NCBI GenBank assembly: GCA_001797615.1
Contig: MGPV01000012.1
Location: 1-56,323, forward strand
Length of the DNA: 56,323 nt
Reading direction: 5' to 3'
Source: Deltaproteobacteria bacterium GWC2_65_14
GTDB taxonomy: Bacteria > Desulfobacterota > Deferrimicrobia > Deferrimicrobiales > Deferrimicrobiaceae
Part shown: piece after piece, positions 18,760 through 56,323 of the stretch
How the letters are laid out: each line of letters begins with the position of its first letter
Numbering within the stretch: the stretch's first letter is position 1
Position numbers and translations under genes: made by a program
Notes under the pieces: model-generated
Database searches by the model: none
What the model was told of the DNA's origin: nothing
The model's input: the letters and a program-made list of their open reading frames with translations, nothing else

Positions 18760-18807
18760 CGAAACCCTCCCGTTTGAAAATAAACGGTGTTTCAATATGC
18801 TGTGGTG

Positions 18808-20656: not shown

Positions 20657-21183
20657 GCGCTTCCTCGATCGGGAAGGGGAAGGCCGTCTCCTTCGTCGCG
20701 AAGTCGGGGACGGGGAAAACGACGCTGCTCGAGAAGGTGATCGCGGAGCTGAAAGGGCGCGGATACCGGGTGGGGGTCGTCAAGCACGACGCCCACCGGT
20801 TCGAGATCGATCGTCCCGGGAAGGACAGTCACCGGCTGACCGCCGCGGGGGCGGACACCATGGTGATCGCCTCTGCGGAGAAGCTCGCCATGGTGAAGCG
20901 GCATGCGGAGTCCCCCGGCGTGGAGGAGTTGATCGGGACCTACTTCGCCGACGTGGACATCGTCCTCACGGAGGGGTTCCGGAAAAGCAGGCTCCCCAAG
21001 ATCGAGGTCCACCGGAAAGGGCGCAGCGAGACCCTGCTCTGCCGCGGGGAGGAGCACGACCCGACGCTGGTGGCTGTGGCCAGCGACGCGCCGCTTTCCC
21101 TCGATGTCCCCCGGTTCGACATCGACGATCCCGCCGCCATCGCCGACTTCCTCGTGGAGACCTTCCTCACGCCCGGCGCGTGA
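20653..21183 (+). CDS. mobB: Molybdopterin-guanine dinucleotide biosynthesis protein B
   Basis: VAKSGTGKTTLLEKVI, VKHDAHRFEIDRPGKDS, LTEGFR, PKIEVHR. Confidence 0.95.
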   Translation: MSASSIGKGKAVSFVAKSGTGKTTLLEKVIAELKGRGYRVGVVKHDAHRFEIDRPGKDSHRLTAAGADTMVIASAEKLAMVKRHAESPGVEELIGTYFADVDIVLTEGFRKSRLPKIEVHRKGRSETLLCRGEEHDPTLVAVASDAPLSLDVPRFDIDDPAAIADFLVETFLTPGA

Positions 21184-21195
21184 CCCCGCCGCCGG

Positions 21196-22398: not shown

Positions 22399-22402
22399 CC
22401 GC

Positions 22403-23104
22403 TCAGTCTCCGTCCGTTGGATTTGCCGGTTCGGGCCCCGGTTGCGGCGGGGGATCGATCCTGCCGTTGGCGATGCGAAGGAGCTCGCTTCCGGACCATG
22501 CGGGATGGGACGGCCCGTGCGTTGCCAGAATCACCGTGGTCCCCGCCCGGGGAAGCGAAGCGATGACATCCTGTAGCACATCCGCGGTTTCCCTGTCCAC
22601 GTTCGCCAGCGGTTCGTCGAGCAGCAGCACTTTCGGGGAGAGCGCGAGGGCGCGCGCCATCGCGACACGCTGGGCTTCCCCCCCGGAGAGGCCCCGCGCC
22701 TTTCTCCGCTCGAACCCCGCAAGCCCCACCGTCTCCAGCGAACGTCCCGCGGACCGGCGGAGATCTTCCCCCCGGATCCCCCTCGCGGCGAGTCCGAACA
22801 CGAGGTTCCCGAAGACGGTGTCGTCGAACAGGTAGGGCGACTGGTGCAGCAGGGTGACCTCCCTCCGGACGCGGAAGGCGTGCGGAGTTCCCGCAAATAC
22901 CTTCTCTCCCCGGTAATAGAGCGTCCCCTCCGAGGGGGGGAGAAGAAGGGCCAGCAGCGAGAGGAGGGTGCTCTTCCCGGCGCCGTTCTGTCCCGCCAGG
23001 ATGTAGGACCGGCCTTCCGCGATCGAAAGGTCCGGGATTTCCAGCGCGACGACGCCGTTGTAGCGCCGCATCACCGACTCCAGGCGGTAGAGCGGGGGGC
23101 TCAT
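22403..23104 (-). CDS. tupC: Tungstate ABC transporter ATPase
   Basis: GQNGAGKST, LSGGEAQR, LLLDEP; ATG 23104 overlaps the tupB stop. Confidence 0.88.
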   Translation of the reverse strand: MSPPLYRLESVMRRYNGVVALEIPDLSIAEGRSYILAGQNGAGKSTLLSLLALLLPPSEGTLYYRGEKVFAGTPHAFRVRREVTLLHQSPYLFDDTVFGNLVFGLAARGIRGEDLRRSAGRSLETVGLAGFERRKARGLSGGEAQRVAMARALALSPKVLLLDEPLANVDRETADVLQDVIASLPRAGTTVILATHGPSHPAWSGSELLRIANGRIDPPPQPGPEPANPTDGD

Positions 23105-23793
23105 GGCCGCCTCTGCTGGAGGAGGCTCAGGAAGACGTTGACGATCAGGGCGACCGCCATGAGGACCACTCCCAGGGCCATCCCCTCGGCGAACTTCCCC
23201 TTGCTGGTCTCCAGGGCGATCGCGGTGGTCATCGTCCGGGTGTAGCCGCGGATGTTGCCGCCGAGCATCATCGCGATTCCGACCTCCGAGACCACCCGGC
23301 CGAACCCCGCGACGACGGCGGCCAGGATTCCGAAGCGGATCTCGGAGACGAACTTCAGCCAGGCCCGGACGGGGCCGGCCCCCAGGGTCATCGCCGTCGG
23401 GAGGATCCTTGCGTCGGCCCCCTTCGCGGCGACCATGGCATAGTGCGCCACGATCGGGGTGCACAGGATGGTCCCCCCGATCACGATCGCCGCCGGCGTG
23501 AAGAGAAGGCCGAGGGAGCCCAGGGGACCGCGCCGGCTGAGGAAGCCGTAGACGACCAGGCCGACCAGGACCGTCGGAAGGGCGACGAGGCTGTTCAGCA
23601 GCGTCACGGCCGGCCGCTTGAGGGGAAACTCGGAAAGCCCCACCGCCAGCCCCAGTGGGATCCCCATGAGGGAGGCGAGCAGGATCGAGCCGCCCGAGAC
23701 GAGGAGGGAGGTGAGCACCGCATGCAGGATGTCGGGATCCGCCGAGAGAAGGAGCGACAGGGCCGCGTTCATCGAATCGGCGAAAAATTCCAC
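23101..23793 (-). CDS. tupB: Tungstate ABC transporter permease
   Basis: ALPTVLVGL, GFGRVVSEVG, GGNIRGYTRTMTTAIALETSKG. Confidence 0.92.
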   Translation of the reverse strand: MEFFADSMNAALSLLLSADPDILHAVLTSLLVSGGSILLASLMGIPLGLAVGLSEFPLKRPAVTLLNSLVALPTVLVGLVVYGFLSRRGPLGSLGLLFTPAAIVIGGTILCTPIVAHYAMVAAKGADARILPTAMTLGAGPVRAWLKFVSEIRFGILAAVVAGFGRVVSEVGIAMMLGGNIRGYTRTMTTAIALETSKGKFAEGMALGVVLMAVALIVNVFLSLLQQRRP

Positions 23794-24645
23794 TCAGCGC
23801 TCCGCGCCCATGGCGGGGAAGAAGAGCGGCTCCCCGGCGATCCGGTATTCGGCGATGATTCGCTGTCCTTCGGGGCCGGTCAGGAAGTCGGTGAACTTCC
23901 GGGCCAGGCCGTACCGCACGTGCGGATGCCGGGCGGGACTCACGGCGATCACCCCGTAGGGGTTGCGGAGCTGCGCGTCCCCCTGGAACAGGATCGCCAG
24001 GTCGATCCTCGTCCGGAAGGCGACGTAGGTCCCCCGGTCGGACAGGGTGTATCCCCGTTTCTGGAAGGCCATCTCGAGGACCTCGCCCATCCCCTGGCCC
24101 GCCTCCCGGTACCAGGACCCCTTCGGGACGATCCCCGCCGCGCGCCAGAGCTCCTGTTCCTTCCGGTGCGTCCCCGACTCGTCGCCCCGGGAGATGAAGA
24201 GGGCCTTCGACGCGGCAATCCGGCGCAGGGCGTCCGCCGGGCCGACCGCGCCCGACACCTTGGCCGGGTCGGCCCGGGGCCCGAGCAGGACGAAGTCGTT
24301 GTACATCACATCCTTCCTGTCGATCCCGTGCCCCTGGGCCACGAACCGGTCCTCGAGCTCCCGGGCATGGACGAACACGACGTCGACATCCCCCGCCTCC
24401 CCCAGCTTGAGGGCCTTCCCCGTGCCCACCGCGATCACGTTCACGGTGCAGCCGTTGGCCCGCTCGAACGGAGGGAGAAGCGCCGCAAGCAGTCCGGAGC
24501 TCTCCGTGGAGGTGGTGGTCGACATCCGGAGACGTTCCCCTGATTGCACAGCAGAGGAAAGGATCAGGATCGTCGCGGCGAATGCGGAGAGCGTCCTGAT
24601 CAACCGATGCCGCGGGGAGGATTTTCGGACATACGAGGACGCCAT
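23794..24645 (-). CDS. tupA: Tungstate ABC transporter substrate-binding protein
   Basis: Signal-like N-terminus, RMSTTTSTESSGLL (TTTS motif), GTGKAL, FISRGDESGTH, TLSDRGTY; start approximate. Confidence 0.9.
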   Translation of the reverse strand: MASSYVRKSSPRHRLIRTLSAFAATILILSSAVQSGERLRMSTTTSTESSGLLAALLPPFERANGCTVNVIAVGTGKALKLGEAGDVDVVFVHARELEDRFVAQGHGIDRKDVMYNDFVLLGPRADPAKVSGAVGPADALRRIAASKALFISRGDESGTHRKEQELWRAAGIVPKGSWYREAGQGMGEVLEMAFQKRGYTLSDRGTYVAFRTRIDLAILFQGDAQLRNPYGVIAVSPARHPHVRYGLARKFTDFLTGPEGQRIIAEYRIAGEPLFFPAMGAER

Positions 24646-33693: not shown

Positions 33694-34400
33694 TCTTCCG
33701 CCGGTCCGCCGGATGGGCGTTTCCCGTCGTGCTGCTCCTGGCGGCCGTTCCGCGCGCAGGCGCGGAAGATCCGTACCTTGCGGCGCGTCTCGCGATGGTG
33801 GAGGAGCAGATCGCAGGGGAGGGGGTCGTCGATTCCCGTGTGCTCACGGCGATGCGGGAGGTCCCCAGGCACCGGTTCGTCCCCGCGGAGTACCGCCATC
33901 TCGCCTACATCCCCCGCCCGCTTCCGATCGGGGAGGGGCAGACGATCTCCCAGCCCTACATCGTCGGGTTCATGACGGAGATCCTCCGGCTTCGGGACAC
34001 GGACCGGGTGCTGGAGGTGGGGACCGGCTCCGGGTACCAGGCGGCGATCGCCGCGAAAATCGCCGCCGAGGTCTACAGCGTCGAGATCTTCGAGGTGCTG
34101 GCCGACCGTTCCCGCCGGACCCTCGACGAGCTGAAGTTTCCCAACGTGGTCACGAAGCAGGGGGACGGCTACTACGGGTGGGAAGAGAAGGCGCCCTTCG
34201 ACGCGATCATCGTGACCTGCGCAGGGGGGCATGTCCCTCCGCCGCTCCTGCGGCAGCTGAAGCCGGGAGGGAGGATGATCATGCCGGTGGGCGGTCCGTT
34301 CATGACCCAGAACCTGGTGTTCCTGGAAAAGCATGCGGACGGATCGTTGTCCCAGAAGAATGTCCTCCCCGTCGCATTCGTACGGCTTCTCGGCCACTGA
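33690..34400 (+). CDS. pcm: Protein-L-isoaspartate O-methyltransferase with a signal-peptide-like N-terminus
   Basis: VPRHRFVP, IGEGQTISQPYIV, VLEVGTGSGYQAA, APFDAIIVT, QLKPGGRMIMPVG. Confidence 0.93.
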   Translation: MIFRRSAGWAFPVVLLLAAVPRAGAEDPYLAARLAMVEEQIAGEGVVDSRVLTAMREVPRHRFVPAEYRHLAYIPRPLPIGEGQTISQPYIVGFMTEILRLRDTDRVLEVGTGSGYQAAIAAKIAAEVYSVEIFEVLADRSRRTLDELKFPNVVTKQGDGYYGWEEKAPFDAIIVTCAGGHVPPPLLRQLKPGGRMIMPVGGPFMTQNLVFLEKHADGSLSQKNVLPVAFVRLLGH

Positions 34401-36774
34401 TCCCCGGCCCTCCTCGGTCCTCCCCGCCGTCTTCCTGGTTTCGGCGGCGGCGATCGCGGACGAGATCTTCCTGATCCGCCTTCTTTCCGTCCGCTTCTGG
34501 CCCCACTTCGTACCGCTGATCCTCTCCCAGGCGATGCTCGGATTCGGCGCGTCCGGCATCGCGATCCACCTGCTCCGGGAGCCGATCGGACGGTCCCCGG
34601 GGAGGGTCTTCCCCTGGCTGGTCCTCCTCGCCGCTCCGGCGTTCGACCTCGCCTTCCGGGCGTCGCTGCTCGTCCCGTTCGACCCCTATATCCTGCTGTG
34701 GGATCCGTTCGCCTGGCTTCCCTTCGCCCTCTTCTTTCTCCTGCTCTCCGTTCCGTTTTTCCTCGTGGGGAGCGCGGTCGGCCTGCCGCTCTCCTTCCGG
34801 ATCGGGAACCCGGGGGTCGTCTACGGGGCGAGCTTCGCAGGCTCTGCCGCGGGAGCCCTGATCGCGCTTCCGGCCCTTTCGCTCCTTCCCACGGAAAGCC
34901 TGCTGAAAGGGGCGACCGCGCTGGGATTCGCGGGGGCACTGTTCGTGGTGCCGCGAGCCCGCGGGGGGATATCGGTGAGCCGGGCGGCGGCCGCGGCGGC
35001 GTCGCTGGCGCTGATCCTCCTTCCTGCGCCGGACCTTCGGCTCTCCCCCTACAAGGATCTGGCCGTCGCCGGACGGCTCCCCGGCGCCCGCATGCTGGGA
35101 GTCCGGGCGGGCCCGTCGGGCGACTTCCGCGCCCTGTCCGCCCCGGGCCTGCACATCGCCCCCGGCCTTTCGTTCCGGTTCGACGGGGAGATCCCTTCCC
35201 AGGCCGCTCTCTTCGCGGACGGCGAGTTCCGGGGCGTCATCCCGCAAGGGGGCGGGGCGGATCCTCCCCGGTATCTCTCCTGGTTCCCGTCGTCTCTGCC
35301 GTACCGTCTGGCGGCCCGCCCCGAGGTCCTGCAGCTTTCGCTCCGCGGAACGGAAGGGATCCTGGAGGCCGCCGCGAACGGCGCCTCCTCATTGACGGTG
35401 GTCGAACCGGCGGGCGAGGCGGCGGCGCTCCTCGGGAATCTTCGATCCTTTTCCGGAGACCCTCCGGCCTCCCTTCGTCTTTCGATCCGGGAGGAAGGGG
35501 CCAGAAATTATCTCGCCCGGGGGGAAGGGCGGTTCGACATCGTGGAAATCCACGGGGTTTCCTCCTCGACCTTCTCTTCCGTCGGAATCCACGCGGCGGG
35601 GGAGGCCTTCCTGCTGACGAGGGAAGGGATCGGGGCTGCGCTCTCCGGGACGAAGCCGGACGGGATGCTCGCCGTCTCCGGGTGGCTGAAGAGCCCGGCC
35701 CGGGAGAGCGTCAAGATCCTGCGGACCCTACGGGAGGAGATGGAGGGGATGGGGCTGCGCCCCGTTCCGGAGCGGGTCCTGATGGTGAGGGGATGGGGTT
35801 CCTTCACGATCGTCGCGAAGAGGATCCCACTGACCCCGGCGGAGCGTGAGGCGGCGGATCGCTTCTGCGCGGAAACCGGGTTCGAGGTCGTCTGGCCGCC
35901 TGCGCGGGGGAGGAGCGAGGAGCCCGGGGAACGGGCTCTCGCCGCCGCGGTGCAGGCCGCTCTCATCGGAGGGGCGGAGAAGGAGGGCGCGTTGTTCGAT
36001 CTGCGCCCGGCCACGGACGACTCCCCCTACTTCTACCGGTTTCTGCGGCTCGGGGCGATCGGGGAATTCCGAAGGTCTCTCGGGAGCCAGTGGGTCCCCT
36101 TCCTGGAGTGGGGGGTCCTCTTCCTCCTGATTTCCCTGGCGGTCTCGTCGGCGGTGGCGGCCGTGTTGCTCCTGCCGCCCGTACTGTTCGGAGGCGGGAA
36201 AGGGGGCAGGCCGCCGGTTTCCCTCGCGGGCTACTTCTCGGCGCTCGGATTCGGGTACATGCTGGTCGAGCTGACCTTCCTCAAGACCGGGATCCTGTTG
36301 CTGGGAGATCCGGTGGGGGCGGCGAGCGCCGCGATCGGCGGGTTCTCCTTCTGTTCCGGGGCGGGAAGCATGCTGTCCGGCCGGATCGGCGGGGACGAGG
36401 CGATGCGGCGGTGGATCTTTCCCGGGATCGCGATCCTTTCCGCGGGGGGATACCTCTTCCTTTCGATTGCCGCGCCGCGGATCCTTCCCCTCCCGGCGGG
36501 AGTGCGGGTGGCGTTGTTCCTCGCCGCCATGGCGCCGGCCGGATTCCTCATGGGGATCCCGTTTCCCGCGGGGCTCTCCCGGCTTTCGGCCGCCGGTTCC
36601 CGGGCGATCCCGTTCGCATGGGGGGTCAACGGGTTCTGCTCCGTCGCCGGGGCGTCGCTCGCCGCCGCGGGAGCCCTCTGGTTCGGCCTCCGGGGAACCC
36701 TGCTCGCGGGGTCGCTGCTCTACCTGCTCGCGGGGGCCCTGTTCCGCCGCCTGGGGGAGGGGCAGCAAATTTGA
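34360..36774 (+). CDS. Multi-pass membrane protein with a central spermidine-synthase-like domain (start uncertain)
   Basis: N- and C-terminal TM bundles; central LTVVEP...RNYL...FDIVEI...AFLLTREG and RPATDDSPYF; ends FAWGVNGFCSV. Confidence 0.8.
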   Translation: MSSPSHSYGFSATDPRPSSVLPAVFLVSAAAIADEIFLIRLLSVRFWPHFVPLILSQAMLGFGASGIAIHLLREPIGRSPGRVFPWLVLLAAPAFDLAFRASLLVPFDPYILLWDPFAWLPFALFFLLLSVPFFLVGSAVGLPLSFRIGNPGVVYGASFAGSAAGALIALPALSLLPTESLLKGATALGFAGALFVVPRARGGISVSRAAAAAASLALILLPAPDLRLSPYKDLAVAGRLPGARMLGVRAGPSGDFRALSAPGLHIAPGLSFRFDGEIPSQAALFADGEFRGVIPQGGGADPPRYLSWFPSSLPYRLAARPEVLQLSLRGTEGILEAAANGASSLTVVEPAGEAAALLGNLRSFSGDPPASLRLSIREEGARNYLARGEGRFDIVEIHGVSSSTFSSVGIHAAGEAFLLTREGIGAALSGTKPDGMLAVSGWLKSPARESVKILRTLREEMEGMGLRPVPERVLMVRGWGSFTIVAKRIPLTPAEREAADRFCAETGFEVVWPPARGRSEEPGERALAAAVQAALIGGAEKEGALFDLRPATDDSPYFYRFLRLGAIGEFRRSLGSQWVPFLEWGVLFLLISLAVSSAVAAVLLLPPVLFGGGKGGRPPVSLAGYFSALGFGYMLVELTFLKTGILLLGDPVGAASAAIGGFSFCSGAGSMLSGRIGGDEAMRRWIFPGIAILSAGGYLFLSIAAPRILPLPAGVRVALFLAAMAPAGFLMGIPFPAGLSRLSAAGSRAIPFAWGVNGFCSVAGASLAAAGALWFGLRGTLLAGSLLYLLAGALFRRLGEGQQI

Positions 36775-46184: not shown

Positions 46185-47330
46185 GTGAGAAGGGAATGGG
46201 TGCTCCTTACAGGGTGTCTTTTTCTCCTGGGGCCGATCGCCGGCTGCAAGGCTCCTCCCGCGAAGGAAATCAAGATCGGCCTGATCACGCCGATCTCCGG
46301 AGACGTAAAAACGTACGGGGAATCGGTGAAAAACGCCTTCGAGATCGCGGTGCAGGAGGCGAACGCCTCCGGGGGGGCCGCGGGCCTTACGATCGCGACG
46401 GTGGTCGTGGACGACAAGAACGACCCCACGGAGGCGAGCAACGCGGCGAACCTGCTGATCAACCAGCACCGGGTGCGGGCGATCGTGGGGTCGGTCACCT
46501 CGAAGGCCACCATCCCGGTGTCCGACATGGCACAATCCTACAAAATTCCGACGATCACGGGGACGGCGACCAACCCGAAGGTGACGGTCGCGGACGGCAA
46601 GCGGAAGGACTACATGTTCCGCGCCTGCTACACCGATTCCTTCCAGGGAACGGTCATGGCGAAATTCGCCCGGGAGACGCTGAAGGCCGGATCGGCGGCC
46701 GTGCTCTACGACGCCTCCAACGACTACTCCCTGGGGATCGCCGAGGTCTTCCGGGACGCTTTCGGAAAAATGGGAGGCCGGATCGCGGCCTACGAGTCCT
46801 ACGGGAAGGACGACGTCGACTTCTCGGCCCTCCTGACCAAGCTGAAAGCGGCGAAACCGGATGTCCTCTTTCTCCCGGACTATTACGGCAAGGTGGGGCT
46901 GATCGCCAAGCAGGCGAGGGAAAAGGGGATCCAGGCCGCCCTGATCGGACCCGACGGGTGGGATTCCCCCGAACTGGTGAAGATCGCCGGGAGCGCGATC
47001 GAGGGGGGGTACTTCTCGAACCACTACTCGCCGGAAGACACGCGGCCGGAGGTGGTTCACTGGGTGAAGAAGTACCAGGAGAAGCACAAGCAGACACCGG
47101 ACGCCCTCGCGAGCCTCGCGTACGACGCGACGAACATGCTGATCGAGGCGATCCGGAAGGCCAACAGCGACGACCCCGGGAAGATCCGGGACGCCCTGGC
47201 GTCGATGCAGGGATACACGGGGGTCACGGGGACCTTCACGATGGACCGGAACGGCGACCCGGTGAAAAGCGCCGTCATCCTCCAGATCCGGGACGGCAAG
47301 CAGAAATTCCTCCAGGTCGTGAACCCCTGA
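46185..47330 (+). CDS. livK: Branched-chain amino acid ABC transporter substrate-binding lipoprotein
   Basis: Lipobox IAGC; IKIGLITPISG, FRACYTDSFQG, GPDGWDS, ALASLAYDA. Confidence 0.9.
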   Translation: MRREWVLLTGCLFLLGPIAGCKAPPAKEIKIGLITPISGDVKTYGESVKNAFEIAVQEANASGGAAGLTIATVVVDDKNDPTEASNAANLLINQHRVRAIVGSVTSKATIPVSDMAQSYKIPTITGTATNPKVTVADGKRKDYMFRACYTDSFQGTVMAKFARETLKAGSAAVLYDASNDYSLGIAEVFRDAFGKMGGRIAAYESYGKDDVDFSALLTKLKAAKPDVLFLPDYYGKVGLIAKQAREKGIQAALIGPDGWDSPELVKIAGSAIEGGYFSNHYSPEDTRPEVVHWVKKYQEKHKQTPDALASLAYDATNMLIEAIRKANSDDPGKIRDALASMQGYTGVTGTFTMDRNGDPVKSAVILQIRDGKQKFLQVVNP

Positions 47331-47355
47331 GAGCGGGACGGAAGGGATCGGACAG

Positions 47356-47387
47356 GGGCCGGGCGGGAGCTTCCCCCCCGGCCCTTT
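47356..47387 (+). terminator. GC hairpin with U4 tail between livK and livH
   Basis: GGGCCGGG...CCCGGCCC-TTTT. Confidence 0.55.
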
Positions 47388-47431
47388 TCGCGAGGCTTCC
47401 GTCGGGCACCCTTCCGTAAGCGGGCCGAGTC

Positions 47432-48316
47432 ATGGAGTACTTCGCCCAGCAGCTGGTCAACGGGCTCCAGATCGGATTCGTGTACGCCCTGATCGCCCTG
47501 GGGTACACCATGGTGTACGGGATCGTCCGCCTGATCAACTTCGCGCACGGCGACGTCTTCATGGTGGGGGCGTTCATCGGGCTCTACGGGATCGGAACGT
47601 ACCACCTTCCTTTCGCGGTCGTCCTGCTCCTCGCGGCGGTCGGCTGCACCCTTTTGGGTGTGCTCATCGAGCAGCTCGCCTACCGGCCCCTTCGCGACGC
47701 ACCCAAGATCGCTGCGCTGATCACCGCGATCGGCGTCTCCCTGTTCCTGGAATACTTCACCAGCCTGAAGCCGCTGTTCGGCCCGAACTTCTATTCCTTC
47801 CCCCGTCCCTTCGAGGTCGTCTCCCGCGAGGTGTGGGGGATCACCGTGACGAACATCCAGGGGATCATCCTGGTCACGACCGTCCTGTGCCTCGCGCTGC
47901 TCCAGTTCGTCGTCTTCCGGACCCGGATCGGGAAGGCGATGCGGGCCGTCTCGCACGACCATGTCACCGCCGGGCTGATGGGGGTGAACGTGAACCTGGT
48001 GATCTCCTTCACCTTCGGCATCGGCGCGGCGCTCGCGGGGGTGGGAGGGATCCTCTACGGGATCGCCTACCCGCAGGTGAACACCTTCATGGGGTTCATG
48101 CCGGGGCTGAAGGCGTTCACCGCCGCGGTCCTCGGGGGGATCGGGAGCATCCCCGGGGCTTTTCTCGGTGCGCTCATCATGGGACAGGCGGAGACGCTGA
48201 CCACGGCCTACCTCTCCTCGACCTACCGGGACGGAATCGCCTTCGTCATCCTGATCCTGGTCCTGCTCTGGAGACCCACCGGCATTCTCGGGGTCTCCAG
48301 GACGGAAAAGGTGTGA
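47432..48316 (+). CDS. livH: Branched-chain amino acid ABC permease
   Basis: YALIALGYTMVYGIVRLINFAHGD, GLKAFTAAVLGGIGS. Confidence 0.95.
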   Translation: MEYFAQQLVNGLQIGFVYALIALGYTMVYGIVRLINFAHGDVFMVGAFIGLYGIGTYHLPFAVVLLLAAVGCTLLGVLIEQLAYRPLRDAPKIAALITAIGVSLFLEYFTSLKPLFGPNFYSFPRPFEVVSREVWGITVTNIQGIILVTTVLCLALLQFVVFRTRIGKAMRAVSHDHVTAGLMGVNVNLVISFTFGIGAALAGVGGILYGIAYPQVNTFMGFMPGLKAFTAAVLGGIGSIPGAFLGALIMGQAETLTTAYLSSTYRDGIAFVILILVLLWRPTGILGVSRTEKV

Positions 48317-49287
48317 CCGGGGTGAGAACGGGTCGGAACCTCGCTGCGCTCCTCCTCGCCTTCGCGGCCGCCGTGGGAGGGATCTCCCTGCTGGAGGGGC
48401 ACGGGATCCTGAATCCGTACTGGATCCAGATCCTCCAGCTTGCCTGCATCGTGACCATCTCCGCGCAGGGGCTGAACGTCGTCTACGGGCACACGGGCCT
48501 CTTTTCGCTCGGCCATGCCGCCTTCTACGGGATCGGGGCCTACACGGCGGCCTACTTGATGAAAGGCTGGGGAGGCGATTCCCAGCTCCTGTTCGTCTGC
48601 GCGCTGCTCGCCGGAGGGGGGGCGGCGGCGACCGTCGCCTTCCTGATCGGACTGCCGACCCTCCGGCTGACTTCCGATTACCTCGGGATCGCCACGCTGG
48701 GGTTCGGCGTCATCATGAAGGTGGTCTTCGACAACATGGACGGATTCCTCCCTGCACTGGGGGGAGCCAGGGGGATGACCGGCATCGCGAAGATGACCAC
48801 CGTCCCGTGGGCCCTGTTCGGGCTTCTCGTCTCCACCCTGGTCGTCCGCAACCTGGTCCACTCCAGCTACGGCCGGGCTCTCACCTCCATCCGGGAGGAC
48901 GAGATCGCGGCGGAGTCGATGGGAATCGACACCTTCCGGTACAAGATGATCGGGTTCGTGACCGGGTGCGCCTTCGCCGGCGTGGCCGGGGGGCTCTACG
49001 CGCATCTGTACCGCTTTCTCCACCCGAGCAATTTCGACTTCTTCAAGTCGATCGACGTCCTGATGATCGTCGTCATCGGCGGGCTCGGGAACATGACCGG
49101 GACGGTGGCCGCCTCCTTCGGGTGGATCTTCCTCCTCGAGGGGCTTCGCTTCCTGCTCCCTCCCGAATATGTCGAGCTCCGGTGGGTCGTGATCCCGGTC
49201 CTGCTCGTCGTCACGATGCTTTTGCGGCCGCAGGGGCTGTTCGGCCGGTGGGAGTTTTTCCTCCTGCGGGCGCGGGGGGAGCGATGA
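48313..49287 (+). CDS. livM: Branched-chain amino acid ABC permease
   Basis: GLFSLGHAAFYGIGAY, LRLTSDYLGIATLGF, IREDEIAA, VVIGGLG; start approximate. Confidence 0.93.
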   Translation: MTGVRTGRNLAALLLAFAAAVGGISLLEGHGILNPYWIQILQLACIVTISAQGLNVVYGHTGLFSLGHAAFYGIGAYTAAYLMKGWGGDSQLLFVCALLAGGGAAATVAFLIGLPTLRLTSDYLGIATLGFGVIMKVVFDNMDGFLPALGGARGMTGIAKMTTVPWALFGLLVSTLVVRNLVHSSYGRALTSIREDEIAAESMGIDTFRYKMIGFVTGCAFAGVAGGLYAHLYRFLHPSNFDFFKSIDVLMIVVIGGLGNMTGTVAASFGWIFLLEGLRFLLPPEYVELRWVVIPVLLVVTMLLRPQGLFGRWEFFLLRARGER

Positions 49288-50066
49288 TCCTCGAGGTCCG
49301 GGGGCTGACAAGGCATTTCGGGGGGATCCGGGCGCTGGACGGAATCGACCTGGGGATCTCCGCGGGGGAGCTGGTCGGGCTGATCGGCCCGAACGGGTCG
49401 GGGAAGACCACCCTGTTCAACGTCGTCACCGGCATCTATCGTCCGGACCGCGGGGAGGTCCTCCTGGAAGGAGAGGATATCGCCGGCCTGCCCCCCCATC
49501 GGATCAACCATCTCGGGGTCGCGAGGACCTTCCAGAACATCCGCCTGTTCCGGAACCTCTCGGTGCTGGACAACGTCCGGGTCGCCTATCACCGGCATAT
49601 CCCCTACGGCCCCCTGTCCGCCGTGTCCCGCACCGGGAAGTTCCTCCGGGGAGAACGGGAGCTGCTCGACCGGGCGCAGCAGCTTCTCTCCATCGTCGGC
49701 CTGGAGGACCGGAAGGAGGAGCTGGCCGCGGGCCTCGCCTACGGGGCCCAGCGCAGGCTCGAGATCGCGAGGGCGCTCGCCTCCGGGCCGAAGGTCCTCC
49801 TGCTGGACGAGCCGGCGGCGGGAATGAACCCGTACGAGGTGGGACGGCTGAAGGAGTTCCTCCTGGAGATCCGGGAGCGGTTCCGGCTGACCGTCCTGCT
49901 GATCGAGCACCAGATGAGCCTCGTGATGAGCCTGTGCGAGCGGATCGCCGTGATGGACTTCGGCCAGCTGATCGCCCGGGGGAGCCCCGGGGAGATCCGG
50001 AAAAACCCGGCCGTGATCGAAGCGTACCTCGGGGAATCAATACCCGCCAACGGGGCGGAAGGGTAG
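49284..50066 (+). CDS. livG: Branched-chain amino acid ABC ATPase
   Basis: GPNGSGKTT, RTFQNIRLF, LAYGAQRRLE, LLDEPAAG, IEHQM. Confidence 0.95.
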   Translation: MILEVRGLTRHFGGIRALDGIDLGISAGELVGLIGPNGSGKTTLFNVVTGIYRPDRGEVLLEGEDIAGLPPHRINHLGVARTFQNIRLFRNLSVLDNVRVAYHRHIPYGPLSAVSRTGKFLRGERELLDRAQQLLSIVGLEDRKEELAAGLAYGAQRRLEIARALASGPKVLLLDEPAAGMNPYEVGRLKEFLLEIRERFRLTVLLIEHQMSLVMSLCERIAVMDFGQLIARGSPGEIRKNPAVIEAYLGESIPANGAEG

Positions 50067-50077
50067 GAGCCGGGGCG

Positions 50078-50809
50078 ATGCTCTCCGTCGAATCGATCGA
50101 GGTCTTCTACGGGAACATCCAGGCGCTGCGCGGGGTCTCCTTCACCGTGCGCCGGGGGGAGATCGTCTCGCTCGTCGGGGCGAACGGCGCGGGGAAGAGC
50201 ACGACGCTGAAAGCGCTTGCCGGGATCCTCTCCCCCCGGTCGGGATCCATCGTCTTCGAAGGAAAGCGACTGCGCGGAGTCCCCCAGCACCGGATCGCCC
50301 GGATGGGGATCTCCCTGGTGCCGGAGGGGAGGGGGATCTTCGCGAACATGACGGTGCGCGAGAATCTCGAAATGGGGGGATACATCCGGCGCTCCGAACG
50401 GGAGATCGAAGAGGGGATCGCCTGGGTGGTGTCGCTGTTCCCGCGTCTGAAGGAACGGATCCGCCAGCCGGCGGGGACCCTTTCCGGGGGAGAGCAGCAG
50501 ATGCTGGCCATCGGAAGGGCGCTGGTGGCTTCCTCGAGGCTCCTGCTGCTCGACGAGCCGTCGATGGGACTCGCGCCGCTGCTGGTCCGGGAGATCTTCC
50601 GGCTGATCGGGGAGATCCACCGGGCGGGGACGACCATCCTGCTCGTGGAGCAGAACGCCTACATGGCCCTGTCGATCGCGTCCCGGGCCTACGTGCTGGA
50701 GAACGGATCGATCGCTCTGGCGGGGGATGCCGCCGACCTCATGCGGAACCCGAAAGTGCGCTCGGCCTACCTCGGAGAGGCGCCGCAGGAGGGCTCCGGG
50801 AGGGGATGA
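50078..50809 (+). CDS. livF: Branched-chain amino acid ABC ATPase
   Basis: GANGAGKST, LSGGEQQMLAIGRAL, LDEPSMGLAP, VEQNA. Confidence 0.95.
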   Translation: MLSVESIEVFYGNIQALRGVSFTVRRGEIVSLVGANGAGKSTTLKALAGILSPRSGSIVFEGKRLRGVPQHRIARMGISLVPEGRGIFANMTVRENLEMGGYIRRSEREIEEGIAWVVSLFPRLKERIRQPAGTLSGGEQQMLAIGRALVASSRLLLLDEPSMGLAPLLVREIFRLIGEIHRAGTTILLVEQNAYMALSIASRAYVLENGSIALAGDAADLMRNPKVRSAYLGEAPQEGSGRG

Positions 50810-50846: not shown

Positions 50847-53800
50847 TCAGGGCCGGGTCGGACCGACCGGAACCGGCTCGACTACCGGAGGGGCCTGGCC
50901 GGAGAGGATCTCCAGGACCTTCCGGAGGAACTCCTTTTCTCCCCGCTCCTCCGGTTCGGGGATCAGGCTGATTCGCACCCGTTTTCCCCCGACCAGGAAA
51001 TGCTGCTCCGCGAGGGCGGTCCGGACCATCTGGCGGAGGGCGGCCCGGATCGCCTGTCCCTCTTCCGTCCGGGGGGAAGGGGCGGTCACGACGAGGCTTC
51101 CGTCTTCCTGGATCGAGCGCATCGCCTCCGTGAACGCGGACAGAATTTTCCCGAGGTGCGACAAAAACCGCTCCCTGTCCTCCGCGTCGAACCGGAGGAG
51201 GGAGGGTTCGGCGGACGACCGGCCCGCGAAGAGGACCGCCCCGGAGTGGGGCGGGCCGCCCAGGAGCGAGGGATCCAGCCAGGGCTCGAGGACCCGCGGG
51301 TCGGAGAGATCCATTTCCCGTGAAATCGGCTCGGAACCGCCTTTCCGCCGCGCTCCCCCCGGGTCGGGGGAGGTTCTCCCGATCTCGACCTTTCCCGGCT
51401 CGCCGGCCGATTCGACGATCGTCGTCACCCCGGCTCCCTCGCGCAGCAGCGCCTGCGCGCATCCGGTCGCGGCGCCGTTCCTCTGCACCGGACCGATGGA
51501 GAGCACGAGAAAGGAGGCGCCCGCCAGCGGCCCCTTCCTGGCCGCCGCGGATGGAGGGAACGAGGAAAAGGCGGGAAGGGAGGTCACCCCGAGGAAGGGG
51601 TCCTCCAGAAAGGAGGCATTCTTGGCCCCGAAAAGCACCGCGTCGGCCACCTGCTCGTTCGTGGGAGGAGCGGCCGGAACGGTGGAACGGAACCATTCCT
51701 TCGCACGGCCGTACCAGGATTCCATCTCGGAGCGGACCGCCTTCGGCATCCGGCTTTCCGCGACGGCGGAGAGGAACGCCGCCGCCGCCTTCTCCCGCCG
51801 GGACGCGGGAGAGGACCGGTCGAACGATTCGATGAACAGCTCCTCGATCTTCTTCCGCTCCGCCGCCCCCATCTCCCGGATCCGTCCGAACTGCGCGGCG
51901 AACTGGACGGCGTAGTTCCGCATCACCCAGTCCATCCGGGGTCCGGCGATCAGGCTCGGCGCGACATCCACGATCCGGATCCCGTCTGCCGCAAGTCCTT
52001 TCCGGAGGCAGAAGGAGAGCGACTTCAGCAGGATTTTCGACACCGTGTAGATGGTCCGGAAGATGTAGGGGTGGTCGGCGTAATGGGTCGACACGTTCAC
52101 GATCGCGCCTCCCCCGGTCTGCTTCCGGAGGATTTCCCGAAGCAGGGAAATGGCCGTCCAGGGACCGAGAAAGTTCGCGCGCAGGACCTGCTCCCAGCTC
52201 TTCCGGTGCTCCCGCAGGACGTCCCCGATGAGGGAAAACTCCCCCCCCGCGCCGGCGTTGTTCACGAAGGCGTCGATCCGGCCGAAGCGGTTGCGGGTCT
52301 CCTCGATCAGGGCGCGGACCCTGGCGGGTCGGGAGACGTCCGCGTCGACCCAGATGGAGCGGGCGCCCAGGCGCCGGATCGCGGACAGTACCGCGTCACC
52401 CGCCTCCAGGTCCGCTTTCGCCCGGGCGGCCTCCTCTCCGGAGAGCCCGGCGGCGGTGGGGCGCCGGCTGGCAATGACGACGGTCGCCCGTTCCGCGGCG
52501 AAGCGGAGAGAGATCTCCTTGCCGAGGTTCCGGATCCCCCCGGTGACGACCACGACCTTCCCGGCCATCGAGCCCGGCGCCTCCGCCGGCTCGGCCGGAA
52601 GACGTGCGATGGCGTTCACCTCGTCGGGAAGGAGGGTGACCCCCGACACGTTCTTTCCCTCCTCGAGCAGCCAGAGGACCGATGCGGCGGTCCGTTCCGG
52701 GTCCGGCTGGCGGTTCCGGCCGTCGGTCCTTCCGGGAAGGATCAATCCGATGTTCACCGCGCTCACCCGGGAAGGGGCGGTCCCGTCGGCCTGCGCCTTC
52801 CGCATGAGGGCGCGCTCCATCGCCTCGGTGGCCACCGCCGGGCGCAGCATCGACTGGAACACCTGGACCAGGTTGCGCTCCCGGATCGAGGGAACGCCGG
52901 AGAGGTCGGGGCCGACCAGGACGATGCTCCCGTCGACGCCGCCCCGGTCCATTTTCCGCTCGGCCTGCCAGCAAAGGAGCCGGGGAACGTATCCGAACCG
53001 GTCGACCGCAGCCGTCCACTCCTCGAAGGGGATCGTGGTCAGCGGACGCTTCCAGTCCGCGCTGCCGGTGAAGTGGAGCAGCAGGTCCAGTCGCGGGAGG
53101 CCGTCGAAGAGCTCCTGGACCTCCGCGAGGTTTCCCAGCTGCGCGGGAAACACGGTCGCCATCCCCTCGCCGCCGCCGGCGTTGATCTTCATGGCCAGCG
53201 CCTCCATGTCGTCCGTGCGGCTTCCGGCCAGCACGACGTTCGCTCCGGCCCGGGCCAGCGCCTGGACGGTCGCCGAGAACAGGGTGATGTCGTACCCTTG
53301 CGGGCTGTGCAGCGTGGCCAGGGCGACCTTCCCGACCATGTCCGGGTAGCGGGAGAGAAGAGCGGGGGAGGGAATCACGCCGGGAGGCTGTTCGTAGGTG
53401 ACCCCGCCCATGGGAAAGCGGTGTCCCCCTTCCGTGCGGCGGAACTCGACCCTTCCCATGTCGAGGGCGACGCGGGCGAAGTCCCGCGGGAGCACGAACT
53501 CCCGGGTCACCGTCCTGTCGAGGGTGTCCCGCTCCAGCGACTCGGGGGACACCTCCCTCCCGATCCTCGCCCTGGCCTTCGAGCCCTTGTCGAAGACGCC
53601 GGACCCCCGTTCGATCCGCTCCGTGGAGACCGCGGCCGGATTCAGGGAGAAGACGGTGATCTGTTTTTCCGCCAGCATCCAGGCGAGGTAGTCCCCCAGC
53701 GCCAGCTTCGCGGACTGGGCGGAGGTGTAGGGGAGGCGGCCGGGATAGGCGTGGAGCACGTGCCGGTGGATGCTTTCGCTGTAGAAGGTTCCCACCATGA

Positions 53801-55862
53801 CGATGACCCCGCCGTCCTTCTGGTTCTCCATCATCCGCGCCGCCTCGAGGCTGGCGAGCCAGGATCCGGTCAGGTGGATCGCCACCGCTTCCCGGTAGAG
53901 ATCGAAGTGGGATTCCCGGTAGGCCGATCCGAACTCCACCGGCCCCGACACTCCCGCGTTGTTGTAGAGGATGTCGATCCGGCCGAAGGCGCGCCCGATC
54001 TGCTCGAACATCTCGCCGACATATTTCGGATCCCCGACGTCCCCCTGCACGATGAGCGTCTGGTTCGTGAGGCCCAGGTGGCGGATCAGGTCGTCCATGT
54101 CGGTCTTCGTTTCCTCGAGCGGGGTGTGTCGCCTCCCGGTGATCACCACGTTTCCCCCGCGGACCGCCGCCTCCAGCGCGAGTGCCCGCCCCATCCCGGT
54201 GCCGCCGCCGGTGATGACCACCACCTTTCCGGCGAGCGAGGTGTCCGGGTACCGGACGTGGTTGAAGGAGTGGGTCCTCGCCACCTCCTTCCGGATGAGG
54301 TGGCTCGCCCGCGCCGGGTTCGTTTCCTCCCCGAGGGAGAGGAAGAGAAGGTAGAGGGGATCGCCCGTTCCGGCCGATTCGTAGAAGGCGGCCATCTCCG
54401 CACGGGCCTCGTCCGGCAGCGCCTGGTAGAACCGGTACCCTTCGATCGCCCCCTTCACCGCCACCGCGAACTGCCGGTCGAGCTTCAGCTTCTCGTCCGG
54501 AAAGGCTCCGTCGCGGACGAACCGGCAGGCCAGGATGGCCGGAATCCCCAGCGGAGCGGACCCCTCGGCGCTCCCCTTCAGGAGCGCCTCCACGAAGGAG
54601 CGCTCGAACACCCAGTGGACCCGGTCGTGCCCGTCGATGAACTTTGCGGAGGGCCGCTCGAGGTCGGGGAGGACATGGAGGATCCGGGCGCCCCCGGTCT
54701 CGCCGAGGGGATCGGGACCCCCTTCTGCCGGAGCGGGGAGGTCCGCCTTCTTCCGGATCTTCCGGAAGAGTTCGATCGATCCGTTCAGCAGCCCCGCCAG
54801 CTCCTTCGCCTTCCTGCCCGCCCACCCCTCGGCCTTTACGGCCCCGGATTCCAGGCGAAGCCCCTCGTAGGCCGGGTCGGCTCCCAGCGCGTAGGACCGT
54901 ATCGCGACTCCCGTGAGGAGCTCCGCTTCCTTCCGGACCGATTCCGGAGCCCCGGAATCCTTCTCCACCTTGCGCAGGTAGGTCAGGGCGCGCTCGGAAT
55001 CCCCCTCTTCGAGCGATCTTCGCGCAGACGCGATGCGATCGCGGGCCTCCTCCTCCCGCACCGATGCGCGCACTTCCTCCACCAGGTTCCGGTAGCGGGA
55101 CCCCATGCTCCGGGCCAGATCCACCACGCGCGTCTTCCGGGCCTGGTCTGCGCCGAACCGCGCCTCGAGCTCCTCCATGCGGAATTCGTCAGGCTCGTAG
55201 GAGGTGCCGAGGATCCGGTCGAAATAGGCCTCGTCGCGGTCCCGGCCCGCCTCCTCCGCGATGAAGCGGTTCAGGTCGCTCACCTCGGTCCCGTCCGGAC
55301 CCGGTGGGGAGGCGTTGTAGCCCGACTCGCAGAGAACGGCGACCATGTGGGGCAGCCCCAGGACCCATTCGAGGAGGGGATGGAGCACGGCCTGCAGGAG
55401 CAGGTGCGGCCGCGTTTCCGCCTTTGCGACAAACGCCCGGGGGAGGAAGATCCGGACCTTCGCCCCTCCCAGGGAGAGCAGCCCCTTTTTCCCCTCCCAG
55501 AGAAGCTCCCCGTCCCGCTCCACGAGGAGCACCTCGCAGGCCGGGCGGGCGTTCTCCCTGGGGAAGCCGGTATCCTCCCCAAGGTCCACGACCCGGACGC
55601 CGACCTCCCCGCTTTCCAGGGTTCGGAGGATGCGCGTCCGGATCTCTTTCGCGGCGGCCGGATCGATCTCCCGGAGGATGGGGGAAACGGGACGCTTCTT
55701 CAGGATCGACAGAATCCGGTCGAGCGTGGAGGCGGGAAGATCGGCAATCCTCCCCTCGTTACCTTTTTCCCGGATGAGGGAGGCGATCCGCCGGATCTCC
55801 TCGAAGGAGATCGAACGGTCCCCCGGGGCTTTTTTCGCGATCGGTCCGGCCGGTTCTTCCAT
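50847..55862 (-). CDS. 1671-aa multi-SDR protein: ~540-aa orphan domain, Mcr-C-like SDR pair, Mcr-N-like SDR pair (domain-permuted malonyl-CoA reductase-like)
   Basis: TGGGTGMG/YNNAG from aa ~543; TGGIRNLG/VNNAG from aa ~1099; YxxRxxY motifs at aa 706-712 and 1266-1272; two degenerate Rossmann domains. Mcr similarity is judged from my memory of the Chloroflexus sequence. Confidence 0.75.
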   Translation of the reverse strand: MEEPAGPIAKKAPGDRSISFEEIRRIASLIREKGNEGRIADLPASTLDRILSILKKRPVSPILREIDPAAAKEIRTRILRTLESGEVGVRVVDLGEDTGFPRENARPACEVLLVERDGELLWEGKKGLLSLGGAKVRIFLPRAFVAKAETRPHLLLQAVLHPLLEWVLGLPHMVAVLCESGYNASPPGPDGTEVSDLNRFIAEEAGRDRDEAYFDRILGTSYEPDEFRMEELEARFGADQARKTRVVDLARSMGSRYRNLVEEVRASVREEEARDRIASARRSLEEGDSERALTYLRKVEKDSGAPESVRKEAELLTGVAIRSYALGADPAYEGLRLESGAVKAEGWAGRKAKELAGLLNGSIELFRKIRKKADLPAPAEGGPDPLGETGGARILHVLPDLERPSAKFIDGHDRVHWVFERSFVEALLKGSAEGSAPLGIPAILACRFVRDGAFPDEKLKLDRQFAVAVKGAIEGYRFYQALPDEARAEMAAFYESAGTGDPLYLLFLSLGEETNPARASHLIRKEVARTHSFNHVRYPDTSLAGKVVVITGGGTGMGRALALEAAVRGGNVVITGRRHTPLEETKTDMDDLIRHLGLTNQTLIVQGDVGDPKYVGEMFEQIGRAFGRIDILYNNAGVSGPVEFGSAYRESHFDLYREAVAIHLTGSWLASLEAARMMENQKDGGVIVMVGTFYSESIHRHVLHAYPGRLPYTSAQSAKLALGDYLAWMLAEKQITVFSLNPAAVSTERIERGSGVFDKGSKARARIGREVSPESLERDTLDRTVTREFVLPRDFARVALDMGRVEFRRTEGGHRFPMGGVTYEQPPGVIPSPALLSRYPDMVGKVALATLHSPQGYDITLFSATVQALARAGANVVLAGSRTDDMEALAMKINAGGGEGMATVFPAQLGNLAEVQELFDGLPRLDLLLHFTGSADWKRPLTTIPFEEWTAAVDRFGYVPRLLCWQAERKMDRGGVDGSIVLVGPDLSGVPSIRERNLVQVFQSMLRPAVATEAMERALMRKAQADGTAPSRVSAVNIGLILPGRTDGRNRQPDPERTAASVLWLLEEGKNVSGVTLLPDEVNAIARLPAEPAEAPGSMAGKVVVVTGGIRNLGKEISLRFAAERATVVIASRRPTAAGLSGEEAARAKADLEAGDAVLSAIRRLGARSIWVDADVSRPARVRALIEETRNRFGRIDAFVNNAGAGGEFSLIGDVLREHRKSWEQVLRANFLGPWTAISLLREILRKQTGGGAIVNVSTHYADHPYIFRTIYTVSKILLKSLSFCLRKGLAADGIRIVDVAPSLIAGPRMDWVMRNYAVQFAAQFGRIREMGAAERKKIEELFIESFDRSSPASRREKAAAAFLSAVAESRMPKAVRSEMESWYGRAKEWFRSTVPAAPPTNEQVADAVLFGAKNASFLEDPFLGVTSLPAFSSFPPSAAARKGPLAGASFLVLSIGPVQRNGAATGCAQALLREGAGVTTIVESAGEPGKVEIGRTSPDPGGARRKGGSEPISREMDLSDPRVLEPWLDPSLLGGPPHSGAVLFAGRSSAEPSLLRFDAEDRERFLSHLGKILSAFTEAMRSIQEDGSLVVTAPSPRTEEGQAIRAALRQMVRTALAEQHFLVGGKRVRISLIPEPEERGEKEFLRKVLEILSGQAPPVVEPVPVGPTRP

Positions 55863-55863: not shown

Positions 55864-56323
55864 CTATCTCTCCCCGGCCGGCAGCAGCTCGAGGAACGAG
55901 GACTGGAGGGGGTCCTTTTTCAAAAAGCGTCCGACCCATTCCTGTCCTCCGGGAGACGCCGTCACCTTCCCGAAGATCCGGGCGTCGTTCTCGAGGCCGG
56001 AGGCGAACCCGTGCTCGTATCCGTGGCGCATCGCAAGCAGCGCCTCCCGGGCGGCCGCCATCCGCGCGGTCCGAAGATCCGCCGCACGTTCCTTGTCCGG
56101 CGCGGCGCAGGCCAGGATTTCCCGGACTTCCGGGCGGGCCAGGACCGCGGAGAGCTCCGCGGACTGTGTCCCCGCGATTCCGTCCCAGTGCTTCGGGGAC
56201 CTCGCCCGTTCCCCGGAGGCGAACTCGCGGGCTCGGCGGACGGCGGTCGAAAGCGCGGTGGCGGAGGAGGAAAACTCGTCCGCCAGGCCGGCCTCGACGG
56301 CCGCGTAGCCGTCCACCGGCTCG
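55864..56323 (-). CDS. 3' end of a crotonase/enoyl-CoA hydratase-domain protein (runs off the window)
   Basis: VDGYAAVEAGLADE and AMRHGYEHGFASGLENDARIFGKV...GGQEWVGRFLKK are crotonase C-terminal helices; stop lies 1 nt before the next ATG. Confidence 0.75.
   Translation of the reverse strand, partial: EPVDGYAAVEAGLADEFSSSATALSTAVRRAREFASGERARSPKHWDGIAGTQSAELSAVLARPEVREILACAAPDKERAADLRTARMAAAREALLAMRHGYEHGFASGLENDARIFGKVTASPGGQEWVGRFLKKDPLQSSFLELLPAGER

Follow-up and report, generated by a model that had tools for sequence, protein, structure and literature searches.

The question raised by this locus is whether a bacterium outside the Chloroflexi carries a malonyl-CoA reductase (MCR) of rearranged form. 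The window, i.e., the whole stretch of DNA that was analysed, consists of 56,323 nucleotides of Deltaproteobacteria bacterium GWC2_65_14 (assembly GCA_001797615.1, contig MGPV01000012.1, positions 1 to 56,323), and the gene in question occupies positions 50847..55862 on the minus (-) strand. A preliminary description, made from the sequence alone, had seen in it the two halves of MCR in swapped order behind an additional domain. The encoded protein has the architecture of MCR; in sequence the relationship is remote, and orthology is not demonstrated. The reading favoured here, and considered moderately probable, is that the gene product is a bifunctional enzyme of the MCR type that uses NADPH and would convert malonyl-CoA to 3-hydroxypropionate and feed the formation of propionyl-CoA.

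According to the list of open reading frames (ORFs) and the translation, the gene codes for 1671 aa plus a stop codon and comprises an orphan N-terminal domain followed by four domains with a short-chain dehydrogenase/reductase (SDR) fold, here termed a, b, c and d. An identical gene call is present on a public aquifer-metagenome contig (ENA ERZ28564412, scaffold_871). About 110 homologues with 59-77% identity are conserved end to end; because they conserve the whole length, the frame is a genuine gene under constraint rather than one that arose by chance in GC-rich DNA. The homologues are annotated as hypothetical protein, SDR family oxidoreductase or enoyl-CoA hydratase, and those with a named source stem mostly from metagenome-assembled genomes (MAGs) labelled Candidatus Deferrimicrobium, Deferrimicrobiaceae or 'Deltaproteobacteria'. 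When one genome per GTDB species was scanned, 45 loci of the family of the 1671-aa gene were obtained; they too come from such MAGs, apart from two with the label Actinomycetota, one with the label Gemmatimonadota and several that bear no label beyond 'bacterium' or 'uncultured bacterium'. The placement of the gene in a non-Chloroflexi genome is thus upheld, the relatives being Candidatus Deferrimicrobiota MAGs. The peptide strings quoted in the preliminary description were all found at the residues given there, and the Chloroflexus MCR strings that it gave for comparison agree with the sequence of PDB 8hjw in HMMER alignments.

The AlphaFold2 (AF2) model of residues 536-1671 (predicted local distance difference test, pLDDT, 80; predicted template modelling score, pTM, 0.73) consists of four successive beta/alpha domains. 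In a Foldseek comparison of this model with the PDB the top 25 matches were all MCR, the best being full-length Chloroflexus MCR 8hjw (E 1.8e-39, about 1300 columns). The first match other than MCR was a yeast tandem-SDR dehydrogenase (2.7e-15), followed by single SDRs near 1e-12. Template modelling (TM) scores normalised by target were up to 0.70 for fragments of the N-terminal half (MCR-N) and about 0.55 for fragments of the C-terminal half (MCR-C), at an identity to the MCR structures of about 17-22% in the same alignments. In the PDB sequence search, full-length MCR chains were top-ranked for both halves. The MCR-like pairing of SDR and pseudo-SDR is present in the predicted structure and, judged by this model, no other solved protein has the four-SDR layout of the 1671-aa protein.

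Two adh_short-type domains were recognised by Pfam, at residues of about 545-775 and at 1102-1306 (E 1e-54 to 9e-63). Catalytic SDR a comprises aa 536-838 (53349..54257, -), as delimited by Pfam adh_short_C2 and motifs, and is followed by the degenerate SDR, or pseudo-SDR, b with aa 839-1095 (52578..53348, -), assigned by hhalign and by the beta/alpha pattern of the AF2 model. Catalytic SDR c (aa 1096-1425; 51588..52577, -) is defined by adh_short at 1102-1306 and by its motifs, and pseudo-SDR d (aa 1426-1671; 50850..51587, -) by its Rossmann-like AF2 pattern and hhalign. The motifs of domain a are TGGGTGMG (551-558), VITGRR, T692 and YPGRLPYTSAQSAK (706-719; nt 53706-53747); those of domain c are TGGIRNLG (1107-1114), VIASRR, NVST (1256-1259) and YIFRTIYTVSK (1266-1276; nt 52035-52067). 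Domain c also contains a poorly conserved helical insertion of about 100 aa (about 1309-1400). Measured against the classical SDR criteria, a Gly-rich motif and a Ser/Thr-Tyr-Lys triad, domain c is fully canonical and domain a has no Lys at Tyr+4. The Gly-rich, basic-pair and catalytic Tyr motifs are confined to a and c, and none of them occurs in b or d. The basic residues after strand beta2 (GRR in a, SRR in c) indicate NADPH as the predicted cofactor. Domain b matched domain a in hhalign at 97.5% and, with a broadened profile, MCR SDR4 at 96.1% and MCR SDR2 at 95.6%; domain d, likewise with broadened profiles, matched domain b at 99.1%, MCR SDR2 at 94.5% and MCR SDR4 at 86.8%. Because of these profile comparisons (a with b, b with d, d with SDR2), b and d are regarded as degenerate SDRs. 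The count of four Rossmann-like domains in the preliminary description, two with NAD(P) motifs and two degenerate, is therefore confirmed by the AF2 model, the motifs and the profiles.

The crystal structure of Roseiflexus MCR-N defines the ligands of malonate semialdehyde and NADP (PMC10470521). Residues T1259, Y1266, R1269, Y1272 and K1276 of domain c correspond, at identical spacing, to Thr165, Tyr172, Arg175, Tyr178 and Lys182 of the Roseiflexus enzyme; the equivalents of Arg41, Asp70 and Arg215 are also kept and Ser213 is replaced by Gly, so that eight of the nine NADP/malonate-semialdehyde ligands of MCR-N are conserved. For comparison, full-length MCRs were taken from a HMMER search that covered 1.84 billion cluster representatives exhaustively; a query of a large protein collection with residues 4-213 of Chloroflexus MCR gave fragments of at most 352 aa together with generic SDRs. 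The Y..R..Y...K clamp is found in 30 of 31 MCR-N fragments and in one of 89 generic SDRs. At position 6 of the Gly-rich motif, all c-type domains have Asn, 13 of 18 MCR SDR1 domains have Asn or Glu, and both a-type domains and MCR SDR3 have Gly; among 153 generic SDRs a single one has Asn there. The distance from the catalytic Ser/Thr to the Tyr is 13 residues in MCR SDR1 and in c-type domains, and 13-14 in generic SDRs. In phmmer searches against Chloroflexus MCR, domain c scored 61.3 bits with SDR1 (4-213) and 48.3 bits with SDR3.

Domain a shows the converse preference (47.4 bits with SDR3, residues 571-781, and 35.0 with SDR1). It keeps T692, Y706, R709 and Y712 at the positions of Ser731, the Tyr743-Arg746 pair and Tyr749 of MCR-C, the Tyr-Arg pair of MCR-C thus being present in domain a as well. 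Lys753, the canonical Lys, has Gln716 as its counterpart, and Lys719 follows three residues later; both Gln716 and Lys719 are conserved within the family as well as in those intermediate a-type proteins of the wider clade that were examined. The distance from the catalytic Ser/Thr to the Tyr is 18 in 18 of 18 MCR SDR3 domains, 19-20 in a-type domains and 20 in domain a, and the flanks of this expanded loop are similar in a-type domains and MCR SDR3 (V-x-[ST]-Y-F ... P-Y-P-x-R). The claim of swapped halves is thus partly supported by the active-site signatures of c (MCR-N) and a (MCR-C); it is not borne out by the profile scores, the neighbour-joining (NJ) tree or the absence of the MCR extra domain. 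To judge from these signatures, the order of functions is probably the opposite of that in MCR, the thioester-reducing domain coming first and the alcohol-forming domain second. Two further likenesses that had been adduced, 'GG..YE' and 'PTNEQVADAVLF', align as stated at probabilities of 1-4% and were given no weight; the place of 'GG..YE' in the alignment is right, and the motif itself is present in three of 16 MCRs and in none of the intermediates.

The giant gene is preceded by a partner gene, which the preliminary description does not mention although it is decisive for the interpretation, and whose 3' end lies at 55864..56323 (-) and which is cut by the window edge; the full gene, of 918 aa, is seen in locus L001 (819-3575). 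It encodes an enoyl-CoA reductase (ER) domain of the ECR/Ccr type (Ccr, crotonyl-CoA carboxylase/reductase), followed by an enoyl-CoA hydratase (ECH) domain, and no ligase. A single base separates its TAG stop codon (55864-55866) from the ATG at which the giant gene starts. A Shine-Dalgarno-like sequence, GGGGAGAG, was read 5-12 nt upstream of this ATG (55868..55875, -); as it lies inside the end of the partner gene, translational coupling is indicated. The top PDB match of the partner, with both domains (ECH 100 bits, ER 80 bits), is 6eqo, the propionyl-CoA synthase (Pcs) of Erythrobacter sp. NAP1. Residues 906-1203 and 1232-1730 of 6eqo are matched and its ligase part is not; no other PDB chain was matched by the two partner domains together.

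In about half of the homologues, partner and giant gene form one reading frame of about 2580 aa in the order ER-ECH-orphan-a-b-c-d. Among the 45 loci, the two are adjacent in nearly all that have enough flank, L006 and L028 being the exceptions. The split into two genes is genuine, because partner and giant gene lie in different frames in two split genomes. An ADP-forming acyl-CoA synthetase is encoded a few genes upstream in eight Deferrimicrobiota loci. Its relationship to the thaumarchaeal CoA ligases for 3-hydroxypropionate and 4-hydroxybutyrate is distant, and it scores 433 bits against the 3-hydroxypropionate-CoA ligase model and 455 bits against the 4-hydroxybutyrate-CoA ligase model, both far below the cut-offs. 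In three of these eight loci (L002, L003 and L020) a YciA-type thioesterase gene was seen near this synthetase.

The search of representatives also revealed a wider clade, whose members score 230-390 bits against the query; true MCRs score only 90-110 bits. It includes tetra-SDRs of 1105-1137 aa that lack the orphan domain (P0240, P0241 and P0243; 230-280 bits), free didomain proteins (P0251 with a+b, P0257 with c+d) and giants of 4553-6910 aa (P0245 with 6910, P0234 with 5945, P0252 with 5572 and P0255 with 4553 aa). In all examined members with both types, the a-type motif precedes the c-type motif. The a-type motif of the wider clade reads YxxRxxYTxAQxxK, with a Ser/Thr-to-Tyr spacing of 19. 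P0245, from a Chlamydiota MAG (MBI1869808.1), has the order ECH_2, AMP-forming ligase, ER-ECH, tetra-SDR, its ligase being of the acetyl-CoA-synthetase type (ACAS_N, AMP-binding, AMP-binding_C). P0255 contains an ECH domain, an AMP-binding ligase and two SDRs, with weak ER-like similarity. P0252 and P0234, the latter labelled phosphoenolpyruvate carboxykinase (PEPCK) by the Joint Genome Institute (JGI), were compared only for the domains of the family itself. Large parts of the giants have no recognised domain. Because the distant giants join tetra-SDR, ER-ECH and AMP-forming ligase, the domain types of MCR and Pcs are all brought together in them.

The fold similarity, the architecture, the motifs and the linkage or fusion of the genes are observed; what the substrates are, which domain carries out which step and what physiological role results we infer as follows. 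The protein would act as two didomains, each of a catalytic SDR and a pseudo-SDR, behind the family-specific N-terminal domain. Domain a would reduce malonyl-CoA to malonate semialdehyde at a site that comprises Thr692, Tyr712 and the Tyr706-Arg709 pair, together with a lid at 745-790 that is conserved and rich in Arg. Domain c would then reduce malonate semialdehyde to 3-hydroxypropionate, with a Thr1259-Tyr1272-Lys1276 triad and a putative carboxylate clamp of Tyr1266 and Arg1269, and 2 NADPH would be consumed over both reductions. The product may be converted to its CoA ester by the ADP-forming synthetase (in some relatives), by another ligase or conceivably by the orphan domain, after which the ECH domain of the partner would dehydrate the 3-hydroxypropionate CoA ester and the ECR-type domain would reduce the product to propionyl-CoA. 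The likely role is a route from acetyl-CoA and CO2 via malonyl-CoA and propionyl-CoA to succinyl-CoA, used for assimilation or redox balance (a 'partial 3-hydroxypropionate route'). Such a role has been proposed for bacteria with only mcr and pcs.

Several observations weigh against this reading. As to sequence, the catalytic cores share about 20% identity with MCR. HMMs for MCR SDR1 and SDR3 give 83-91 bits with the cores of the family, compared with 94-101 bits for generic SDRs, and for each catalytic domain single generic SDRs are as good a match as its MCR counterpart. The expectation that the halves match MCR better than generic SDRs consequently fails, and since generic SDRs score as high as the family cores, the outcome that the preliminary description had itself named first as speaking against MCR is the one observed. 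The hhalign score of domain a is higher with SDR1 (225) than with SDR3 (175); that of domain c is about equal with the two (222 against 213), and core-only profiles behave alike. In the NJ tree with 200 bootstraps, a grouped with SDR3 in five replicates, c with SDR1 in none and a with c in 131, so the pairing of the domains with their MCR counterparts was not recovered. The extra domain of MCR-C, which is inserted in SDR3 and binds CoA, is absent from domain a together with the CoA-binding residues Arg785/Leu795/Arg799; just about 40 residues lie between NPAAVST (741-747) and LPRDFARV (791-798). In hhalign neither SDR insertion region resembled this extra domain (at most 0.2% against its profile), as a relocated copy would. 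Domain a carries Gln at the position where mutation of the Lys abolishes MCR activity. In the AF2 model, pLDDT falls below 50 at aa 639-647, 693-710, 743-756, 777-790 and 805-827 of domain a (nt ~53380-53950). These stretches are exactly the active-site loops of the domain, and few residues of the family are better conserved; to become ordered they may need a partner, e.g., the orphan domain or the substrate.

The same data bear on the possibility that the tetra-SDR is unrelated to MCR by descent, having arisen by an independent duplication of a didomain, and acts on another substrate, e.g., in secondary metabolism or lipid modification, the architecture being convergent. This would account for a similarity to MCR that is no greater than that to generic SDRs, for the grouping of a with c in the tree, for the 99.1% match of b with d and for the existence of the free didomain proteins P0251 and P0257. 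The pseudo-domains b and d are more alike than either is to its MCR counterpart; with a narrow profile d favoured SDR2 and b favoured SDR4, a preference nearly gone with the broadened profile. Convergence is nevertheless judged improbable: the clamp, the loop length and position 6 of the Gly-rich motif are common to the family and MCR domain by domain, and the Pcs-like partner and the ligase in the giant fusions point to the pathway of MCR. Irrespective of substrate, the family looks like a separate tetra-SDR lineage and not like a rearranged or permuted MCR, and this lineage possibly originated from an independent didomain duplication.

The observations on the partner that weigh against an MCR-type function concern its reductase. 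The ER domain alone is nearest to crotonyl-CoA carboxylase/reductase (Ccr 4gi2, 133 bits; TIGR01751, 185 bits, below the cut-off) and, given this closeness, may act on C4 substrates. The locus could accordingly be a module for CoA esters of four or more carbons, in which one SDR is a 3-oxoacyl-CoA (acetoacetyl-CoA) reductase, the ECH a crotonase and the ECR-type domain a crotonyl-CoA reductase/carboxylase, and which would feed an ethylmalonyl-CoA-like or reverse beta-oxidation route and not 3-hydroxypropionate metabolism. The ECH domain matches generic short-chain crotonases as well as Pcs, and the SDR cores score against FabG and glucose dehydrogenase as well as against MCR, as such a module would have it. 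We consider it unlikely all the same. One keto-reductase would suffice for it, whereas the four-SDR layout of MCR type and the Tyr/Arg clamp in both catalytic domains suit a substrate with a free carboxylate; the acyl-CoA ligase of the distant fusions would be needless in a pathway of CoA esters only, and only in Pcs do the two partner domains find their matches within a single PDB chain. The motif 'GSH' of Ccr, with its His, reads 'FRR' in the partner ER, and the Asn and Glu positions of the CO2 pocket of Ccr look conserved. If this Ccr-like reductase carboxylates, the product would be methylmalonyl-CoA.

Archaeal malonyl/succinyl-CoA reductases are promiscuous. A pathway one carbon longer, from succinyl-CoA via succinate semialdehyde to 4-hydroxybutyrate with the nearby ADP-forming ligase as 4-hydroxybutyrate-CoA ligase, is very unlikely: the Tyr/Arg clamp could accommodate an omega-carboxylate of either C4 or C3 length and the ligase scores slightly better with the 4-hydroxybutyrate-CoA ligase model, but 4-hydroxybutyryl-CoA dehydratase was seen in no locus, the linked ECH and ECR domains would have no obvious role after 4-hydroxybutyrate, and the clamp spacing is identical to that of MCR-N, which binds a C3 aldehyde.

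At the level of the pathway, the reading as an MCR-type reductase is opposed by two further points. Genes for acetyl-CoA/propionyl-CoA carboxylase, mutase and malyl-CoA lyase were not found within the window; for this reason a complete cycle is not shown, and the partial route is the conservative reading. The genome paper on Candidatus Deferrimicrobium, the only one on the phylum, did not identify the key enzymes of the 3-hydroxypropionate pathway. Standard markers would probably not have recognised the giant gene in that study.

The orphan N-terminal domain comprises aa 1-535 (54258..55862, -) and is defined by its AF2 model, a confident one (pLDDT 87.5) of mixed alpha/beta fold, and by searches without result. 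No match was found in the PDB sequence search or in Pfam, even at E<=1, and no fold match in a Foldseek comparison of the model with the PDB (best E 0.25, TM <=0.17); weak Foldseek rows (nucleotidyltransferase-like, 14-3-3, TPR) were discarded, their probabilities being at most 0.3. Matches in the homologue search were confined to the family of the domain itself. The additional domain of about 540 aa noted in the preliminary description is hence present, with 535 aa and without a sequence or fold relative outside the family. In hhalign it showed no similarity to the extra domain of MCR either (probability 0.1%), as a relocated copy would. Its C-terminal part (HMM positions 388-533) also stands before an a-type SDR in the giant P0252. 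It contains an invariant His/Glu cluster (H161, E165, H172 and E179) and many invariant Arg and Lys; on the strength of this conservation it looks more like a functional site than a linker. An extension of the MCR-type reading would be that ER-ECH, orphan domain and tetra-SDR together form a self-contained machine from malonyl-CoA to propionyl-CoA, in which the orphan domain activates 3-hydroxypropionate (as CoA ligase or transferase) or serves in channelling; only a low probability is assigned to it. If it were true, the Deferrimicrobiota would possess an unrecognised route of CO2 or acetate assimilation that is hidden from marker-gene surveys.

The 3-hydroxypropionate bicycle has MCR and Pcs as its signature enzymes, and both are used as survey markers. 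In a recent global survey of carbon fixation, the marker for MCR was orthologue group K14468. None of the NCBIfam models reaches its cut-off on the 1671-aa protein, which for this reason would probably escape markers of the K14468 type. In the literature, no description was found of the family, of MCR-like genes in Deferrimicrobiota/MBNT15 or of natural MCR-Pcs fusions. What appears to be new, as far as can be read from the sequence, is an MCR-type tetra-SDR with reversed functional order, an altered catalytic motif and an orphan domain, and without the extra domain; new is also the observed coupling or fusion of such a tetra-SDR to a ligase-less, inverted Pcs. If the proposed activity is real, the segment from malonyl-CoA to propionyl-CoA would extend to a new and widespread phylum of iron-reducing sediment and aquifer bacteria, there would be a natural MCR that functions without the extra domain and with the domain order reversed, and natural fusions of up to five pathway steps would be available for channelling and for 3-hydroxypropionate/propionate engineering. 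The orphan domain is uncharted, and so is the wider clade of a/c-type tetra-SDRs with its giants of 4.5-6.9 thousand residues.

Downstream, the 3' end of the giant gene, at which a scan for promoter and terminator found none, converges with an operon for a Liv-type ABC transporter (46185-50809, +; substrate-binding protein, two permeases and two ATPases) across a gap of 37 bp, and the same neighbour was present in all three loci inspected (L001, L002 and L004). In locus L002, upstream of the ER-ECH/giant pair and on the opposite strand, an alanine dehydrogenase gene (TIGR00518, above the cut-off; 2347-3462) was found, with equivalents at the same position in about 25 related loci. Elsewhere in the window, the stretch ~3700-11600 has a lower GC content (0.57-0.61 against ~0.65-0.69) and encodes MazG-like, Schlafen-type helicase, HNH, NUDIX, PIN and BrnT/CopG toxin-antitoxin proteins; in this it resembles a mobile or defence island. 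In the region ~14800-24500, an operon for succinate dehydrogenase/fumarate reductase is succeeded by the molybdenum-cofactor genes FdhD/MobA, MobB and MoeA and by an ABC transporter (ATPase, a protein without Pfam match and a PBP_like_2-type substrate-binding protein), beyond which lie trehalose-related genes (GH15, GT20, TreT). An ORF of ~804-813 aa at 34333-36774 (+) has a gene call on the public contig and belongs to no Pfam family.

The closest known system is MCR of Chloroflexus aurantiacus, Roseiflexus castenholzii and Porphyrobacter dokdonensis (PDB 8hjw, 8hi4 and 6k8s/6k8v; EC 1.2.1.75 + 1.1.1.298). In common with it, the 1671-aa protein has four tandem SDR-fold domains, catalytic and degenerate in alternation (SDR1 and SDR3 being the catalytic ones in MCR), a Tyr-x-x-Arg-x-x-Tyr clamp in both catalytic domains and cofactor motifs of the NADPH type. 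It differs from MCR in the 535-aa orphan N-terminal domain, the frequent fusion to ER-ECH and the Deferrimicrobiota host, in the helical insertion of about 100 aa in its second catalytic domain (c), in the Gln at the canonical Lys of domain a with a Lys three residues later, and in that domain a is without the extra domain of about 150 aa (eight helices) of the thioester-reducing SDR. The partner shares with Pcs an ECH domain with a C-terminal extension and an ECR-type ER domain on one polypeptide. Unlike Pcs, which is ordered ligase-ECH-ER, it has the order ER-ECH and no AMP-forming ligase, such a ligase being found only in the distant giants, and its ER domain is closer to Ccr than to the reductase of Pcs. 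The uncharacterised tetra-SDRs P0240, P0241 and P0243 and the giants P0245, P0234, P0252 and P0255 have the same four-domain layout and the same order of a before c; unlike the query, the giants add ECH_2, an acetyl-CoA-synthetase-like ligase, ER-ECH and long unrecognised regions.

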